Source: Desulfonatronum lacustre DSM 10312 (GTDB taxonomy: Bacteria > Desulfobacterota > Desulfovibrionia > Desulfovibrionales > Desulfonatronaceae). Taken from it: DNA of 24,000 nucleotides. Below the pieces are notes generated by a model. It had not been told where the DNA came from. It did not search any database and saw only the letters and a program-made list of their open reading frames with translations. Positions 7,481 to 13,706 of the stretch are shown here, piece after piece. The position numbers and the translations under genes are program-made. Each line of letters starts with the position of its first letter. The stretch's first letter is position 1. The stretch is from contig NZ_KI912608.1 in the NCBI RefSeq assembly GCF_000519265.1, positions 113,665-137,664 on the forward strand. Direction: 5' to 3'.

Positions 7481-8440
7481 TTACACCAGGGCTCGCCAAA
7501 GACGCTCGGCCAAGCTCGCTTGACGCTGATCCAGACGGGTGATCCCGGCTTGGGCCGCGGCATTCAGAGCCTGGGCGAACTCCTCGCCGGTGAGCGGACG
7601 GCTCAGTTCCGGGAATGCGTTCGCGTTCCCGCACGGTCGGTATTGGTCCATGATGTTCACGTAGGTGTTCTGGGAGATTTTCCGGGCCAGGAATTCCATC
7701 CACTGTGCGGTTCCGGCCAGATCTTCCGGCATTACCAGATGCCGGACAAGCAGGCCGTGGACGGCGACGCCCCGATCGTCCAGCTCCAGGTCGCTCACTT
7801 GGCGGTGCATTTCTTTGATGGCTTCCCGGGCCCGTCCCGGGTAGTCCTCGGCCCGGCAGTACCGGGCGGCGGCTTCCGGGGCAAAGAATTTGGCGTCGGG
7901 CATGTAAATGTCCACCACGCCGTCAAGTCGGCGCAACGTCTCCAGGCTGTCGTATCCGCTGGAATTGTAGACCAGGGGCAAACACAGCCCCTGGTCCGCG
8001 GCAATGACCAGGGCTTCGAGGATCTGGGGCACGATGTGGGATGGGGTGACGAAATTGATGTTGTGGACGCCTTGAGCCTGCAATTCCAGCATGACGGCGG
8101 CCAGCTGTTCCGGAGTCGCCTCCGGAGCGTTCTTCCCGTGGTGGCTGATGTCGTGGTTCTGGCAAAATACGCAGGCCAGGTTGCACTGGGCGAAAAAGAT
8201 CGTTCCGGACCCACCGCTGCCCACCAACGGCTCTTCCTCCCCAAAGTGCGGGCTGTAGCTGGCCACCTTGGCCCAGCGACCGATCCGGCAAAAGCCCGAT
8301 TCCCCTTCGAGCCGGTTCACCCGGCACTGCCTGGGACACATGGCGCAGTCCCGTAGCGCCTCCACCGCCTCGGCGGCACGGGCGCGCAGTTCTCCGGCGG
8401 CGTGGAGTTGGAGATAGCCGGCTTCCGGCGTCTTGGTCAT
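7481..8440 (-). CDS. Radical SAM protein, PflX-like (homologue of pyruvate formate-lyase activating enzymes)
   Basis: CX3CX2C motif CNLACVFCQN and an N-terminal Cys cluster CAMCPRQCRVNR..GFC. Strong SD AAGGAGG upstream of ATG 8440. Convergent with deaD, 15 nt apart. Confidence 0.8.
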   Translation of the reverse strand: MTKTPEAGYLQLHAAGELRARAAEAVEALRDCAMCPRQCRVNRLEGESGFCRIGRWAKVASYSPHFGEEEPLVGSGGSGTIFFAQCNLACVFCQNHDISHHGKNAPEATPEQLAAVMLELQAQGVHNINFVTPSHIVPQILEALVIAADQGLCLPLVYNSSGYDSLETLRRLDGVVDIYMPDAKFFAPEAAARYCRAEDYPGRAREAIKEMHRQVSDLELDDRGVAVHGLLVRHLVMPEDLAGTAQWMEFLARKISQNTYVNIMDQYRPCGNANAFPELSRPLTGEEFAQALNAAAQAGITRLDQRQASLAERLWRALV

Positions 8441-8947: not shown

Positions 8948-10042
8948 TTATAGACCGCTGTCCCTGGAAAGCGAGTCCGCGTTGCGATACGCGTTGTAGA
9001 CGTCTTCGTTCAGCGGATAGTCCCAGGAGCCGCTACGCAGTTCGATGGTCCCGCCGAATCCGGTCTTGAAGCGGAACAGTCCGTAAAAAGGATGGTCCGG
9101 CGCGGCCCCGGGCGAGACCGCTCCCATATCGTAGCGGGTGCAACCTCGGCTTCTGGCCAGCCGCATGGCGGCCCAGTGCAGGGCGTAGGAACCCATGAAC
9201 GTTCTGTTGGCCGTGGAGGAGGCACCGTGCAGGAAAACGGCGTTGCTCCCGGAAAGAGCGACGATCGCTCCGGCCAGCAGGTCGCTTTCATGCCCGGCCA
9301 ACAGGAAATGCAACTCCGAAGTGTTGGATTTTAGGGCGTGGGCCTGGAACAGAGCCGCGAAGTGGCGATAATCGCAGGAGGGAAAGCCGTTACGTTTGGC
9401 GGTCTGGCGGTACAGGTCATAAAATGAGGGCAGCTTGTCCATGGAGGCCGGGGTTACGACGACGCCCTTGCGCCGGGCCAGCCCGATATTGTAGCGGGTC
9501 TTCGCCTTCATCCCGGCCAGAATCTCCTCTTCCGGACGACTGATGTCCACGACCAGGGAACTGGCCACGGTCATGTCCATTTCCGCCTTGCGCAGGTTCC
9601 AGTGCCTGGTGCCGATGTTCATGCGCATTTCCCGGATGCGCGGTTCCGGAAAGGCGCTCCAGCTTTTGGCGTGCATTTCCCCGGCGTACCGGGACTCCCA
9701 GGGCAGGTCGTAACGGATGAAGGCCACGGAAGGGTCCAGATGGCGGATCAGCGCTTCGGAAAGTTCTTCGAGGTACTGGCCACGATGATCCCCGGGCGGA
9801 GCGTGCTCCGGCCCCTGGGGCACGAAGGCTCCCAGGCTATCCCGACCCACGGGCTGGAGCAGGACCAGGACGTCGCCGCGATTGTCTTGGGCCGGGTTGG
9901 AAGTCGGCTCTGGGGTAAGGATGTCGAAGGCCACCGGCCTACATCCCAGGCGGGATTTAACATGAGCCCAGTAGTCGGACTGGAACAGAATGTCCGTGGG
10001 CAAAAGGGACTGGGTCTTTTTGGGAGCGAGGCGGACAGACAT
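8948..10042 (-). CDS. FemAB-family (lipid II:glycine glycyltransferase-like) aminoacyl/peptidyl transferase
   Basis: FemAB-like blocks: AGMKAKTRYNIGLARRKGV, YDLYRQTAKRNGF, GASSTANRTFMGSYALHWAAMRLARSRGCTRYDMG. Start set at ATG 10042 because a minus-strand terminator (10096-10136) lies inside the longer 10147 version. Confidence 0.7.
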   Translation of the reverse strand: MSVRLAPKKTQSLLPTDILFQSDYWAHVKSRLGCRPVAFDILTPEPTSNPAQDNRGDVLVLLQPVGRDSLGAFVPQGPEHAPPGDHRGQYLEELSEALIRHLDPSVAFIRYDLPWESRYAGEMHAKSWSAFPEPRIREMRMNIGTRHWNLRKAEMDMTVASSLVVDISRPEEEILAGMKAKTRYNIGLARRKGVVVTPASMDKLPSFYDLYRQTAKRNGFPSCDYRHFAALFQAHALKSNTSELHFLLAGHESDLLAGAIVALSGSNAVFLHGASSTANRTFMGSYALHWAAMRLARSRGCTRYDMGAVSPGAAPDHPFYGLFRFKTGFGGTIELRSGSWDYPLNEDVYNAYRNADSLSRDSGL

Positions 10043-10095
10043 GATGGTGATGGATTCCGTATGAACGGTTGAACGAAAACGGGCAAGGGCCGTGG

Positions 10096-10136
10096 AAACA
10101 AACAAAAAGGGTTTCGGCCTTGCGGTCGAAACCCTT
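10096..10136 (-). terminator. Intrinsic terminator downstream of the ATP-grasp/Cys-rich gene pair
   Basis: Minus-strand RNA: AAGGGUUUCG - 10-nt loop - CGAAACCCUU, then UUUGUUUGUUU. The 10-bp stem is perfect (plus-strand coordinates 10107-10116 / 10127-10136). Confidence 0.7.
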
Positions 10137-10153
10137 AGTTTTGCCATGATAGG

Positions 10154-10191
10154 GAGAAAACCAGGTGGCCTTGCGATGCAAGGCTTTTCTC
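10154..10191. other. Compound hairpin: outer GAGAAAA/TTTTCTC, inner GCCTTGC-GAT-GCAAGGC
   Basis: Inner 7-bp stem at 10168-10184; outer A/T stem at 10154-10160 / 10185-10191 with a 7-nt asymmetric bulge. Shares the 8-mer GCCTTGCG with the loop of the terminator at 10117-10124. Confidence 0.35.
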
Positions 10192-10259
10192 AAGGATCCT
10201 CCAGGGGCAACGGAACGGAGACGCTCTTATCTGATTTCAAAGTTGTTGGCAACTATTGA

Positions 10260-10502
10260 TTATTTCTTGAGTTTCTTGGCCAGGAAAACACGCAGTGGGC
10301 AGCGGCAGAAGTAGTCGTGCCCGAAGGACAGGGCGAACGCGCAATCCAGGGGAGTATCCTCACGGCACTTGATATAGCCGTCCAGCCCGAAATCTCGGGC
10401 TTCGCAGAGATCTTCGAAATCTTGCTGCTTGCATCGGAATTCTTTTGGACACTCAATTTCGGACATGATCCGCTCGATGGTTTCAAGGTCTTGTTCATTC
10501 AT
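10260..10502 (-). CDS. Small (80 aa) acidic Cys-rich protein of unknown function
   Basis: ATG 10502 overlaps the ATP-grasp stop (ATGA, 10499-10502). Seven Cys (positions 18, 24, 33, 46, 54, 66, 68) including CRCP near a basic C-terminus AKKLKK. Visibly more AT-rich than its neighbours. Confidence 0.65.
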   Translation of the reverse strand: MNEQDLETIERIMSEIECPKEFRCKQQDFEDLCEARDFGLDGYIKCREDTPLDCAFALSFGHDYFCRCPLRVFLAKKLKK

Positions 10503-11470
10503 ACGACTGGGCTCTCTCTGTCGTTACGGCGTGTTTTCAAAAGCGGGTCGGCAACGACCTGGGCGATAGCTTGGGCGAATTCCTCTGCAGCTGGAAGGTG
10601 TTCGCGCAGCCAAAGTTCGGGTTCGATGAGTTCCAGTTCCATGACCGCCAGCTTTCCGTGTTCGTCCCGGACCATGTCCACTCGTCCGTAGCTCGGGGCC
10701 GGTTCGCAGGCGGCCATGGCGCGTTGGGCCAGTTCCACGTGCTCTCGTGTCGGTTCGAGGTGGTGGACCGTGCCGCCGTGGTCGTCCTGGACCCGGAAGT
10801 CTCCGGCCTTGGGAACCTTGCGCACGGCGTGGGTGACGCGGCCGTTGACGACCATCACCGTGTCCTCCCCGGTTTGGATCACGTCGTGGATGAACGGCTG
10901 GAGCAGGAAGGCCTCGGCGACGAGGAGCGGACGGACCTGCTCCTGAAGCGCGTCGGCGTCGTCGCGATGGACCCGGTAGGTGTGGCGGGCGCCGCCGGAA
11001 ACGCAGGGTTTGAGCACGGCCTCCTCCCATCCGGCGACTTCGAGCAATTCGCGCAGACTCTGGGGGGCGTCGGGTTCGAGAAGCCGGAACGGGACCACCG
11101 GAACGCCTCGGGCCTGCAAGTCCGCGAGATAGTGTTTGTCCAGGTTCCACCAGATGGTTTCCGGGGCGTTGCACAGCCGGGTCTGGGTTTGGACGCGGCG
11201 CAACCATGCACTGAATTCGACTATCCGATCAAAGTAGTCCCAAGTGGTCCGGAAGACGGCGCAGCGAAAAGCCGACCAATCCACGTCCGAAGCGGCCCAG
11301 TCCAGGCGGACCGAGGAAAGTCCGAGTGCCGCGAGGGCGTTTTGCAGCAACTCGTCGTCACGCAGGATGTTGCGCAGATACCAGTCGTCCGGGGCCGCGT
11401 CATTGTATGCGTAGCGGCTCTCGGTCAGGAGGGCCACGTCGGCTGTGGGGTGGTGGGGTACGGGGGGCAT
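10499..11470 (-). CDS. ATP-grasp domain protein (RimK/glutathione-synthetase-like ligase), substrate unknown
   Basis: 323 aa. N-terminal pre-ATP-grasp region (FRTTWDYF), central LKPCVSGGARHTYRV, C-terminal GRVDMVRDEHGKLAVMELELIEPEL, typical of ATP-grasp Mg/ATP-site strands. Confidence 0.8.
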   Translation of the reverse strand: MPPVPHHPTADVALLTESRYAYNDAAPDDWYLRNILRDDELLQNALAALGLSSVRLDWAASDVDWSAFRCAVFRTTWDYFDRIVEFSAWLRRVQTQTRLCNAPETIWWNLDKHYLADLQARGVPVVPFRLLEPDAPQSLRELLEVAGWEEAVLKPCVSGGARHTYRVHRDDADALQEQVRPLLVAEAFLLQPFIHDVIQTGEDTVMVVNGRVTHAVRKVPKAGDFRVQDDHGGTVHHLEPTREHVELAQRAMAACEPAPSYGRVDMVRDEHGKLAVMELELIEPELWLREHLPAAEEFAQAIAQVVADPLLKTRRNDRESPVV

Positions 11471-11538: not shown

Positions 11539-11553
11539 GCCGCGTGTCGCGGC
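11539..11553 (-). terminator. Short hairpin 3 nt after the hgcB stop (possible weak terminator or attenuator)
   Basis: Minus-strand GCCGCG-ACA-CGCGGC followed by CUCUUCUUCC, so the U-tract is poor. A plus-strand reading would give GTTTT, but there is no plus-strand gene upstream. Confidence 0.3.
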
Positions 11554-11556
11554 GTT

Positions 11557-11832
11557 TTAACAGCATTGAGGAGCGCTGCTCTTCGGAAGCCATGTCTGGA
11601 TGATGTAGGCGGCGCAGCCGACGCCGGGCGTCACGCTCATGGCTTCGGTGGGGCAGTTCAGGGCGCAGGCCCCGCACTCCATGCAGGCTTCGCGGTCCTG
11701 GACGTGGGCTTTGTCGTTTTTCAGCGTAAAGACGCGGTGCGGGCAGACTGCGACGCAGAGGCCGCATCCCACGCACTTTTCCTGATCATAGGCCAAGGTG
11801 GCCACGTTTTGCAGATGACGGAATTGTTTCAT
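11557..11832 (-). CDS. hgcB: HgcB, 2x[4Fe-4S] ferredoxin of the mercury methylation pair
   Basis: 91 aa from ATG 11832 (GAGGA SD overlapping the hgcA stop). Two CX2CX2CX3CP motifs (CVGCGLCVAVCP, CMECGACALNCP), an extra Cys at position 73, and a C-terminal vicinal pair ..APQCC. The longer track ORF (to 12006) overlaps hgcA and is rejected. Confidence 0.9.
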   Translation of the reverse strand: MKQFRHLQNVATLAYDQEKCVGCGLCVAVCPHRVFTLKNDKAHVQDREACMECGACALNCPTEAMSVTPGVGCAAYIIQTWLPKSSAPQCC

Positions 11833-11843
11833 GGCATGCGTCC

Positions 11844-12848
11844 TCACTGAAGGTTTCCCCAGATAAAGCAGATCACGGACACCACAGTGGACCCGGCGAG
11901 GATGGGGATGGCCGCCCGCATTTCCTTTTCCACGCCGGAGGGCGACGTGTAGGGCGTGGAGCCGGTGAAGTTCAGGGCCGTCCAGGCAGACAGGGTCATG
12001 GTCCACAACCCCGCTCCCGCCAGGACGGGCCAGGCCGGAGTCGGGAAGAGCAACGGCAGGGCCAGGGCCGGGATCAGTCCCAGGCCGGCTCCGGCCAGGG
12101 AAAAGAGGCGGGTGGGCAGCCGGGGCAGCAGCAACGGAAAGGCCACCGTTCCGCCCAGCAGGCCGAAAAGGGTGGCCGTCGCGGCTACGGCCCAGCGCTG
12201 GAAAACGGCCCCAGGGGCAAACTCCGTCCCAATGAGGCCCAGCACCGCCGCCGCGGCCAGGACCGCGAGAATCATTTTCCAGCCCAGGACCAGCTCAACG
12301 GGTACCACGGCAAGCCGTTCCCTAAAGGTAAAGGTGATTTCCCGCATGGCCTCGTCGGGACCCTGATCCAGAAAACGCGGCAGATCTTCGGCCCGGATCG
12401 GTCCCAGGACGGCTTCGAATCCCGTGGCCTTGCGCACGTCCCGGAGCCGGACGCCGTTGGCGGCCAGTTGGGGCAGAATCAGGCGGCGATGGGACACGAC
12501 GCGGTCCAGGCCGGCCTTGCGGACCTGGACGGCCACGGCTTCGGCGTTGAAGGAGCCCTTGCCCCCGGCGCACCAGACATTGATGCCACGGGTGTCCGCC
12601 ACCAGCAACCAAGCGTTCCGCCCATGCAGGGCGAAGCGGACCGTGTCGAAGGTCAGCTTGTAGTTGGCCGTGACCACGACCGGGGCGTCTGGGGACGGGG
12701 CGCCGACGGCGTAGAGCCCCGGATTGACGGTATAGTTGTTGCGATCCAGTCCCAACCGGGCCCGGCAGTCGCCGAGGCGGTCCCACAATGTTGGACACGT
12801 TCTGACGCGGGGAACGCGCCCCGGCGGGGTGGTGATGAACCCGTCCAC
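11844..12848 (-). CDS. hgcA: HgcA, corrinoid protein of the mercury methylation pair (N-terminal corrinoid-binding domain plus C-terminal TM domain)
   Basis: Cap-helix motif NVWCAGGK at codons 90-97 (nt 12558-12581). About 5 hydrophobic helices in the C-terminal half. hgcB follows 11 nt downstream. GTG 12848 is the first possible start after an in-frame TGA and has no SD; see findings for the upstream in-frame leader. Confidence 0.9.
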   Translation of the reverse strand: MDGFITTPPGRVPRVRTCPTLWDRLGDCRARLGLDRNNYTVNPGLYAVGAPSPDAPVVVTANYKLTFDTVRFALHGRNAWLLVADTRGINVWCAGGKGSFNAEAVAVQVRKAGLDRVVSHRRLILPQLAANGVRLRDVRKATGFEAVLGPIRAEDLPRFLDQGPDEAMREITFTFRERLAVVPVELVLGWKMILAVLAAAAVLGLIGTEFAPGAVFQRWAVAATATLFGLLGGTVAFPLLLPRLPTRLFSLAGAGLGLIPALALPLLFPTPAWPVLAGAGLWTMTLSAWTALNFTGSTPYTSPSGVEKEMRAAIPILAGSTVVSVICFIWGNLQ

Positions 12849-12880
12849 ATAGGGTTCGATGCGATAGCCCGGCAGATCGT

Positions 12881-12901
12881 CGGCCCCCGCACCGGGGGCC
12901 G
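12881..12901 (-). promoter_or_regulatory. GC-rich hairpin 10-11 nt downstream of the in-frame TGA (SECIS-like geometry; alternatively a leader or attenuator hairpin)
   Basis: Minus-strand RNA: C GGCCCCCG GUG CGGGGGCC G, i.e. an 8-9 bp stem with an apical G-U-containing loop. The stem starts 10-11 nt after UGA (12914-12912). Confidence 0.3.
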
Positions 12902-12911
12902 GAGGCGGGCC

Positions 12912-13022
12912 TCAGCACGGTGCGGCGCCTGAATCGGGGCTTGGCCCGGTGGCGGGGGAAAGACCCGGAGTCGGGGTAGCGGGCAAGGGCGGGGCCATGG
13001 GAAAGGGCTGTAATGGTTTCAT
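12912..13022 (-). CDS. 36-codon Pro/Ala-rich leader ORF, ATGA-coupled to arsR, ending in Cys-TGA and in frame with hgcA
   Basis: ATG 13022-13020 overlaps the arsR stop TGA 13021-13019. Translation MKPLQPFPMAPPLPATPTPGLSPATGPSPDSGAAPC, then TGA at 12914-12912. Same frame as GTG 12848 (66 nt between the two codon starts). Coding status unproven. Confidence 0.3.
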   Translation of the reverse strand: MKPLQPFPMAPPLPATPTPGLSPATGPSPDSGAAPC

Positions 13023-13297
13023 GACGCTTCCAGCTTGGCGATGAGGTTCTTGAACAGAGTCAGGCGTGATTTGTCCACGCAGTAGCAAATGCGTGGCCCG
13101 TCGATTTCCCCCTGGATCAGCTCGGCGTCCTTAAGCAGCTTCAGGTGCTGGCTTACCGTGGATTGAGCCAAGGGGAGGATGTTCACGAGTTCGCCGCAAA
13201 CGCACCGGTCTGCTTGCAACAGGTGGAGCAGGATGGTCACTCGGGCCGGGTGGCCCAGGGCTTTGCAACATTGGGCAATGATCTGAACGTCGGTCAT
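13019..13297 (-). CDS. arsR: ArsR/SmtB family metalloregulatory repressor
   Basis: 92-aa winged HTH (LAQSTVSQHLKLLKDAELI). CVC metalloid-binding motif (DRCVCGEL) plus an N-terminal CC pair (AQCCKALGHP). GGGGAG SD upstream of ATG 13297. Confidence 0.9.
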   Translation of the reverse strand: MTDVQIIAQCCKALGHPARVTILLHLLQADRCVCGELVNILPLAQSTVSQHLKLLKDAELIQGEIDGPRICYCVDKSRLTLFKNLIAKLEAS

Positions 13298-13315
13298 GAG
13301 GCTCCCCGAATTGCT

Positions 13316-13335
13316 TTATCGTTAATAAACGATAA
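13316..13335. promoter_or_regulatory. Candidate ArsR operator: inverted repeat TTATCGTT-AATA-AACGATAA
   Basis: Perfect 8-bp arms with a 4-bp spacer, 19-38 nt upstream of the arsR start codon, overlapping the predicted -10 element. Confidence 0.5.
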
Positions 13336-13351
13336 GGCGGGGGAACGTCAA
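13322..13351 (-). promoter_or_regulatory. Putative sigma70-type promoter of arsR-hgcAB
   Basis: Minus strand: TTGACG (13351-13346), 18 nt spacer, TATTAA (13327-13322). Motif match only. Confidence 0.4.
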
Positions 13352-13403: not shown

Positions 13404-13432
13404 TTGACGGGTTGGGGTTCAACCGCTATCTT
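13404..13432 (+). promoter_or_regulatory. Putative sigma70-type promoter of the nfu-like gene, divergent from arsR
   Basis: TTGACG (13404-13409), 17 nt spacer, TATCTT (13427-13432), about 50 nt upstream of ATG 13485. Motif match only. Confidence 0.35.
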
Positions 13433-13484
13433 TTCTAGTTTGTTGACGACTTGCCCGCCCCTGGGCGGAGAAAAGGAGAGCGTG

Positions 13485-13706
13485 ATGCGGGAAAAGGTCC
13501 AGGCGGTGCTGGAGACGATCAGACCGCATTTGCAACGAGACGGGGGAGACGTGGAGCTTGTGGACGTCTCGACGGACGGCGTGGTCACGGTGCGCCTTAC
13601 GGGGGCCTGCAAAGGGTGCCCCATGTCGCAGGTAACGCTGAAAAATGCGGTTGAAAAGACTATCCTGAAGGAACTGCCTGAGATCACGTCGGTTCAGGCG
13701 GCTTAA
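13485..13706 (+). CDS. NifU C-terminal-domain (Nfu-type) Fe-S cluster assembly/carrier protein
   Basis: ATG 13485 with AAGGAGAG SD. 73 aa containing ..IRPHLQRDGGDVELVDV.. and the CXXC motif GACKGCPMS. Confidence 0.85.
   Translation: MREKVQAVLETIRPHLQRDGGDVELVDVSTDGVVTVRLTGACKGCPMSQVTLKNAVEKTILKELPEITSVQAA

Follow-up and report, generated by a model that had tools for sequence, protein, structure and literature searches.

An arsR–hgcA–hgcB mercury-methylation cluster in Desulfonatronum lacustre, with a probable selenocysteine codon in hgcA and a candidate ArsR2 operator

Where does the gene hgcA begin in Desulfonatronum lacustre, and what controls its expression? We examined a stretch of 24,000 nucleotides (nt) from strain DSM 10312 (NZ_KI912608.1, positions 113,665–137,664), called the window throughout; all locus positions are given in its numbering. 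An earlier note on this DNA had described the interval 11557–13351 as a complete arsR–hgcA–hgcB mercury-methylation locus. The three consecutive open reading frames, for ArsR, HgcA and HgcB, do lie at those coordinates, all on the minus strand, as a check of frames and motifs shows. By its sequence, the interval is a genuine and ordinary mercury-methylation cluster, and its host is a predicted methylmercury producer. We part from the note over the extent of hgcA; the interval that it gave already takes in the extension proposed here. With high confidence we read the locus as an autoregulated arsR2–hgcA–hgcB operon of a Desulfonatronum-like sulfate reducer, in which HgcA would be a protein of 392 amino acids containing selenocysteine (Sec). 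The features on which the argument turns are these.

13346–13351, minus strand: candidate −35 hexamer TTGACG of the arsR–hgcAB promoter, read by eye.
13316–13335, no strand assigned: candidate ArsR2 operator TTATCGTT-tatt-AACGATAA, a perfect inverted repeat with an N4 centre, whose imperfect arms reach 13313–13338.
13019–13297, minus strand: arsR2-type gene for an ArsR/SmtB regulator of 92 amino acids, with a four-cysteine site C32/C34/C71/C73.
11844–13022, minus strand: hgcA, proposed full-length gene of 392 codons including one UGA (Sec37), its ATG overlapping the arsR stop (ATGA).
12912–12914, minus strand: in-frame TGA, the proposed selenocysteine codon in P-C-U-G-P (in-frame translation APC*GPP).
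12881–12901, minus strand: hairpin resembling a selenocysteine insertion sequence (SECIS), a perfect 9-bp stem CGGCCCCCG/CGGGGGCCG with loop GUG, from +11 after the UGA.
11844–12848, minus strand: hgcA, legacy (short) model of 334 amino acids from GTG, with a corrinoid-binding domain and a transmembrane (TM) domain.
12558–12581, minus strand: cap-helix motif N-V-W-C-A-G-G-K, residues 90–97 of the short model, its cysteine being residue 93 (short) or 151 (full-length).
11850–12305, minus strand: HgcA membrane domain, five predicted TM helices, short-model residues 182–333, from the structural model and hydropathy.
11557–11832, minus strand: hgcB, a 2×[4Fe-4S] ferredoxin of 91 amino acids from ATG 11832, with a GAGGA Shine–Dalgarno sequence 8 nt upstream.
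11539–11553, minus strand: weak, terminator-like hairpin of six GC pairs and a poor T tract, 4 nt past the hgcB stop, from a consensus scan only.

Are the two downstream genes truly hgcA and hgcB? Families were called with NCBIfam equivalog models at their curated cutoffs and with Pfam, and structures by AlphaFold2 (AF2) followed by Foldseek against the PDB. Comparisons between loci draw on 81 hgc loci, of which 80 are genome loci among the matches listed and one is the Logan contig L081. The earlier note had proposed that both proteins be searched with profile models. The 334-residue HgcA frame scores 370.7 bits on NF040863 (HgcA_corrinoid), above the cutoff of 275, and covers model positions 1–322 of 325; HgcB scores 125.5 bits on NF040864 (HgcB_ferredoxin), above the cutoff of 99. 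Because both proteins pass curated equivalog cutoffs, the call of the locus is far beyond chance. An HgcAB-like fusion (NF043039, cutoff 285) was considered and rejected, HgcA scoring 199.3 bits and HgcB 54 bits on that model and the two being separate frames.

The cap-helix motif that had been read at 12581–12558 is present, and its cysteine is indeed residue 93 when counted from GTG 12848. W92, C93 and K97 are invariant among 68 HgcA homologues, with A94 and G96 nearly so. The AF2 model of the 334-residue protein, built on these 68 homologues, has a mean pLDDT (predicted local distance difference test) of 91.1. It places the cysteine on a short helix (91–97) of an alpha/beta domain, followed by five long C-terminal helices (182–203, 212–243, 249–267, 273–295 and 306–333). 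Hydropathy peaks agree with the latter, in keeping with the roughly five hydrophobic helices that had been noticed after the cap motif. In the PDB the best match of the model is HgcAB model 9a0b_A (E = 1.5e-22, 51% identity). Identity of HgcA is 97% to the D. zhilinae protein (P0001), 89% to that of Desulfonatronum sp. SC1, about 70% to a Desulfomicrobium-like group and 53% to that of Pseudodesulfovibrio mercurii ND132 (P0098). We conclude that HgcA is, as modelled, a membrane-anchored corrinoid protein with a cobalamin-binding domain like that of the corrinoid iron–sulfur protein (CFeSP), a cap-helix cysteine and five TM helices.

HgcB is likewise a ferredoxin predicted to bind two clusters, and it has Cys73 and ends in Cys-Cys. 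Its start lies 11 nt past the hgcA stop. The two CX2CX2CX3CP motifs occupy residues 20–31 and 50–61 (cysteines 20/23/26/30 and 50/53/56/60), Cys73 is additional, and Cys90 and Cys91 are the final two residues; every element of the earlier description of this ferredoxin was thus found in the sequence. A tblastn match to HgcB was obtained in 77 of the 81 hgc loci. An ATG at 11837, ahead of the gene, was discarded as a start since it is out of frame. The hairpin at 11539–11553 may be regarded as a weak terminator candidate.

How closely does the pair resemble those already described? In ND132 (DND132_1056/1057; Parks et al. 2013) and in Geobacter sulfurreducens (GSU1440/1441) the domains are arranged in the same way, HgcA having a corrinoid domain with N(V/I)WCA(A/G)GK and five TM helices, and the neighbouring ferredoxin having two clusters, Cys73 and Cys-Cys at its end. 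The differences are small. The cap helix reads NVWCAGGK in the window and NVWCAAGK in ND132, and the terminal cysteines of HgcB are residues 90/91 of 91 here and 94/95 there. In ND132 the cap-helix cysteine ligates cobalt, a Co–S bond having been observed, and S-adenosylmethionine (SAM) rather than methyltetrahydrofolate methylates Co(I), the methyl group then passing to Hg(II) (Zheng et al. 2024). ND132 HgcB has been proposed to hold two [4Fe-4S] clusters and to handle Hg through its C-terminal cysteines, and mutagenesis in ND132 found its three extra cysteines essential for methylation. In D. lacustre the HgcB clusters would similarly reduce cobalt to Co(I).

What regulates the pair? The earlier note had seen an ArsR/SmtB repressor with a CVC site immediately upstream. 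The 92-residue frame does contain C32-V-C34 and is recognized above cutoff both by Pfam HTH_5 (PF01022; 45 bits against 22) and by NF033788 (HTH_metalloreg; 72.9 against 55). It contains in addition two cysteine pairs that had gone unmentioned, C71-Y-C73 and C10-C11. The spacing of 39 residues between the CxC and CYC elements is that of C47/C49/C86/C88 in ArsR2 (DND132_1054) of ND132, the cysteines that set that protein apart from other ArsR proteins (10.1101/2022.10.17.512643). ND132 ArsR2 lies directly upstream of hgcAB, is co-transcribed with it and controls it (Gionfriddo et al., 10.1101/2022.10.17.512643), so that an arsR-like gene in this position is, as had been stated, on record. The window regulator shares with it the position directly upstream of hgcA, the strand, the HTH_5 domain and the spacing of CxC...CxC. 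It differs in its shorter N-terminus and in the extra Cys10-Cys11.

Nor is the arrangement peculiar to these two species. In 26 further full-length loci (L081 excluded) the gene just ahead of hgcA, in the same orientation, encodes an ArsR homologue of 46–76% identity; that of Desulfovibrio caledoniensis (L003) is 55% identical to the window protein. CxC...CYC is found in 21 of the 26, and YFC replaces CYC in five Desulfobacteraceae-type loci (L054, L051, L053, L068, L047). By its cysteine pattern, the window regulator is of the four-cysteine ArsR2 type, which has one CxC after helix 2 and a second ahead of helix 4.

If ArsR2 controls its own operon, where might it bind? From the end of the perfect inverted repeat at 13316–13335 it is 19 nt to the arsR ATG. 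A likely −10 element, TATTAA, would fall in the centre of the repeat, with an 18-nt spacer between it and the candidate −35 hexamer; we placed both elements by eye, guided by related loci. Most of the related arsR2 loci likewise have a TTGAC(A/G) hexamer upstream of their palindrome, at comparable spacing. The core TATCGT-N6-ACGATA occurs once in the window, against none expected. Each of 13 loci has a single copy, which in L081 and in the related arsR2 loci that were compared stands just upstream of arsR. In 23 of 28 arsR2–hgcA loci a looser pattern, ATCG(T/A)-N5–9-(T/A)CGAT, lies in the 200 nt ahead of arsR, and its density there, 30 occurrences in 6,468 nt, compares with 24 in 858,492 nt elsewhere. 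A designed half-site mutant of the arm TTATCGTT would read TTAGCTTT. We regard the palindrome as a well-supported candidate for the ArsR2 operator. The ArsR2 preprint (10.1101/2022.10.17.512643) mentions no palindrome, operator or promoter, and we found no paper that describes one; the candidate operator may be the one small item here that is not yet in print. An ArsR2 dimer bound to TTATCGTT-N4-AACGATAA would cover its own −10 element and repress arsR, hgcA and hgcB together, and an effector at the four-cysteine site would lift the repression.

Which effector, and to what end? In ND132 transcription rises with As(III), with As(V) and with an inhibitor of S-adenosylhomocysteine (SAH) hydrolase, and not with Hg (10.1101/2022.10.17.512643); the effectors there would be arsenic species and the build-up of SAH. 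By analogy, hgcAB would be metal(loid)-regulated in D. lacustre too, as the earlier note had supposed. These observations bring up a different account of the locus, namely that it is true hgcAB, that Hg methylation is a side activity, and that the function under selection is some other corrinoid- and SAM-dependent reaction, tied to arsenic or halomethane metabolism. We hold this to be a minority possibility. It would account for control by an ArsR2-type sensor in place of a sensor of Hg, and besides the induction of hgcA in ND132 by arsenic and by SAH-raising treatments, an hgcAB mutant of that strain shows heightened sensitivity to As(V). According to the abstract of a 2026 preprint (10.64898/2026.04.26.720869), model methylators dehalogenate halomethanes. 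Against this account, the 24-kb window contains no ars or dehalogenation genes, the neighbours being housekeeping genes and an unrelated ATP-grasp/FemAB cluster, and sequence cannot discriminate among possible substrates.

Where, then, does hgcA start? The GTG at 12848 which the earlier note adopted is probably the start of a truncated legacy model. Upstream of it the frame translates as MKPLQPFPMAPPLPATPTPGLSPATGPSPDSGAAPC*GPPPAPGAGADDLPGYRIEPYVDGF..., running through a single TGA to an ATG at 13022, 58 codons earlier; MKPLQPFPMAPP is a stretch of peptide specific to this longer model. We consider it most likely that hgcA starts at ATG 13022 and is read through the UGA. An ATG at 12851, directly before GTG 12848, was discarded, being out of frame.

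Five observations lead us to take the upstream stretch as translated: no start exists between TGA and GTG, the TGA aligns with a cysteine of long-form homologues, its column is otherwise filled by cysteine codons, its spacing is fixed, and a hairpin follows it. First, ATG, GTG and TTG are all missing from the 21 codons that separate the TGA from GTG 12848, and these codons encode the conserved DDLPGYRIEPYV, which is the N-terminus of homologues annotated at 346 amino acids. One of these (P0037, named HgcA) begins MDDLPGY; in the window, L001, L002 and L019 these residues come after the UGA region.

Second, long-form homologues exist that have no stop, of the form ...FPMAPPVP...PCCGPPAGP...ERPGY..., and the window TGA aligns to the second cysteine of their CCG(P/A/S)P. 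Third, we could locate the column in the window and in 59 of the 80 genome loci; among these 60 it is TGA in 26 and TGC or TGT in 34. Fourth, from the TGA to the cap-helix cysteine there are 114 codons in 24 of 27 TGA loci (L081 counted) and 110 in the remaining L063, L064 and L077. An in-frame ATG lies 19–59 codons upstream of the TGA in all 27 except L030. In four loci (L030, L032, L040 and L069) the first start past the TGA is 55–105 codons downstream, and its use would delete conserved domain sequence. The flanks of the TGA are conserved as well: the motif (L)QPFPMAP near the extended start (12995–13022, minus strand, in the window) is conserved in Sec-type and Cys-type long forms alike (L001, L002, L019; P0065). 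L081, which carries a D. zhilinae-type protein, is identical to the window at 579 of 581 positions across arsR and the 5′ region of hgcA; so close a relative is uninformative on selection.

Two further loci of Desulfobacterales type (L062 and L075) have an in-frame TGA upstream of hgcA in the context C*P and not PC*GP, which may mark a variant Sec site or have arisen by chance.

The fifth observation is the hairpin. A hairpin begins between +10 and +16 after the TGA in 24 of 26 TGA loci, and the stems differ in sequence, among them CCCCUG/CAGGGG, CCAC/GUGG, CCGCC/GGCGG and CGAGGCC/GGCCUCG. Loci with a cysteine codon have shorter hairpins at scattered positions (Mann–Whitney test against TGA loci: stem length p = 1e-4, folding energy p = 0.004). 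This comparison is one of per-sequence calls in TGA and Cys loci; an ungapped alignment shows several registers (5′ + 3′ column sums 44–51), and since the registers shift among loci there is no single consensus structure on which covariation could be counted.

A Sec-containing HgcA has been proposed before. Haft & Gwadz 2023 (J Bacteriol; bioRxiv 10.1101/2022.07.06.499078) examined 20 short HgcA models, those of ND132 and G. sulfurreducens among them, and reported that every one can be lengthened to 363–400 amino acids by reading upstream across one UGA, the PCUGP pentapeptide being perfectly conserved. A 2026 review counts HgcA (NF040863, CU motif) among prokaryotic selenoproteins. In the window gene, too, one in-frame UGA precedes the legacy start, in an exact P-C-U-G-P, and the length of 392 amino acids falls within their range, with no difference in kind. 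To their description the present analysis adds the positioned hairpin and the ATGA overlap with arsR. The ND132 homology also explains an agreement that the earlier note had pointed out, that counting from GTG 12848 and ATG 11832 reproduces the ND132 numbers Cys93 of HgcA and Cys73 of HgcB. The count is right, but GTG 12848 is probably not the true start, and the coincidence arises because both hgcA models are truncated at a homologous position (M/V-D-G-F), the shared Cys93 being a common artefact of annotation.

What speaks against an autoregulated operon with a Sec-containing HgcA? The following points do. Taken by itself the window hairpin falls short of significance (z = −1.8; a 9-bp stem is reached in 415 of 5000 dinucleotide shuffles, 8.3%), which is why the argument for it is comparative. 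An Rfam scan of the whole window at gathering thresholds returned nothing, and a permissive scan of 12780–13060 returned two chance matches to long non-coding RNAs and no SECIS family. The 24-kb window contains no selA, selB, selC or selD gene, no tRNA-Sec and no tRNA of any kind; that the host is Sec-competent is an assumption. His-tagged short-form ND132 HgcA made in Escherichia coli is active in lysates (Zheng et al. 2024), which implies that the Sec arm is not strictly required for catalysis. On the regulatory side, a consensus promoter scan of the minus strand called no arsR promoter, leaving the −10 assignment weak.

Several of the same points would suit the view that the TGA at 12914–12912 is a real stop, that HgcA is the 334-residue protein from GTG 12848, and that the 36-codon frame upstream is a small peptide or an untranslated leader. 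Gene callers do give short models to the closest relatives, 334 amino acids for P0001 and P0002 and 330 for P0003, the Desulfonatronum sp. SC1 protein; public models of close orthologues run from 330 to 346 amino acids. We judge this view improbable. A stop at this position would leave without explanation the conserved, start-less 21 codons beyond it, the cysteine that occupies its column in 34 loci, the persistence of the TGA itself at a fixed spacing in 26 diverged loci, the PFPMAP conserved upstream in Sec and Cys forms, and the homologues that have no usable start for 55–105 codons. On this evidence the public models of the close orthologues are truncated at their 5′ ends.

With hgcA taken to begin at ATG 13022, translation would be coupled to the arsR stop through the ATGA overlap, SelB would recode UGA37 (12914–12912) as selenocysteine with the aid of the hairpin 11 nt downstream, and hgcB would be translated from its own GAGGA ribosome-binding site. 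The resulting HgcA would carry an N-terminal Cys-Sec arm (PCUGP), a plausible site for the binding and hand-over of soft metals.

Could the pair belong instead to the Wood–Ljungdahl pathway, as a CFeSP (AcsC/CdhE-like) paralogue and a generic ferredoxin? Pfam does see in HgcA only CdhD (61.7 bits), and several orthologue entries carry the label ‘CO dehydrogenase/acetyl-CoA synthase delta subunit’ or hypothetical, but we reject this reading almost outright, since the protein scores 82.4 bits on the CFeSP gamma-subunit model NF003195 (cutoff 306) and passes the cutoff of the HgcA model, the cap-helix motif and five TM helices are present, and no acs or cdh genes lie nearby in the window. The NF003195 match is confined to the C-terminal corrinoid domain of that model. 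The earlier note had itself raised the prospect of a CFeSP paralogue lacking a TM domain; the protein has one, and its CFeSP score is below cutoff. The structures agree: after HgcAB the next Foldseek matches are CFeSP entries (4c1n, 2ycl, 2h9a and 4djd; E = 1e-8 to 3e-7), and they align over only about 146 columns. What HgcA shares with the CFeSP large subunit (AcsC/CdhE; 2YCL, 2H9A, 4DJD) is the cobalamin-binding Rossmann-like domain, at about 30% identity over those columns; unlike CFeSP it has no N-terminal [4Fe-4S] domain or TIM barrel, and it has the cap-helix cysteine and the five-helix membrane domain.

What else lies around the cluster? The rest of the window holds housekeeping genes, among them gltX, plsX, fabH, fabF, glyA, a DEAD-box helicase, sfsA and a GH57 amylase; mer genes are absent from it. 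Directly downstream of hgcB, at 8948–11470 on the minus strand, is a compact set of genes, possibly a small peptide-modification cluster.

10499–11470, minus strand: DcsG-like ATP-grasp ligase (NF058666, 175 bits, below cutoff).
10260–10502, minus strand: cysteine-rich frame of 80 amino acids, overlapping the ATP-grasp gene, with no family match.
8948–10147, minus strand: FemAB-family protein, downstream of hgcB.

We considered these three as part of the hgc system and rejected the idea: they recur only in the near-identical L081 and at no other hgc locus. The gene order of L081 is the same as that of the window (gltX, nifU-like, arsR, hgcA, hgcB, ATP-grasp, 80-residue frame, FemAB-like, radical SAM). 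An uncharacterized radical SAM protein is encoded at 7481–8440 (minus strand), 3.1 kb downstream of hgcB, and reaches the cutoff of no NCBIfam model. In three Desulfobulbales-type loci (L006 5004–5903, L013 4830–5738 and L036 4052–4930) the gene next upstream of hgcA, on the opposite strand, encodes a homologue 55–58% identical to this protein. The radical SAM gene may be a loose but recurrent neighbour of hgcAB.

On the other side of the cluster a NifU-like gene (13404–13706, plus strand) diverges from arsR. Its mechanically called frame opens with TTG 13404; the corresponding protein of a relative is called at 73 amino acids, implying an ATG at 13485 and hence an arsR–nifU gap of about 187 nt with divergent promoters. 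A match to TTGACG-17-TATCTT lies in this region at 13404–13432 (plus strand).

What does the locus add to what is known? All its components belong to described families: HgcAB (Parks 2013), Sec-HgcA (Haft & Gwadz 2023) and ArsR2 (Gionfriddo 2022/2023). We found no paper that links Desulfonatronum with selenocysteine. The window contributes another carrier genus whose database entries are under-annotated, and a candidate operator. If the long model is true, hgcA encodes a 392-residue selenoprotein translationally coupled to arsR, and the cap-helix Cys93 becomes Cys151. This correction of the start affects the design of primers and of profile models in hgcA surveys. It also bears on biochemistry: most annotations lack the Cys-Sec arm, as do the constructs with which biochemists have so far worked, and constructs without it may not mirror native HgcA.

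We would venture one step further, as a tentative suggestion that has perhaps the smaller chance of being right. The Cys-Sec arm may be the physiological site of substrate capture, handing a soft metal or metalloid to the cysteines of HgcB and to the corrinoid, and TATCGT-N6-ACGATA may be an undescribed ArsR2 operator whose regulon reveals the native role of HgcAB, in arsenic or SAM/SAH-linked methyl chemistry and not in that of mercury. The candidate operator offers, in any event, a defined DNA probe for the signal that controls hgcAB.

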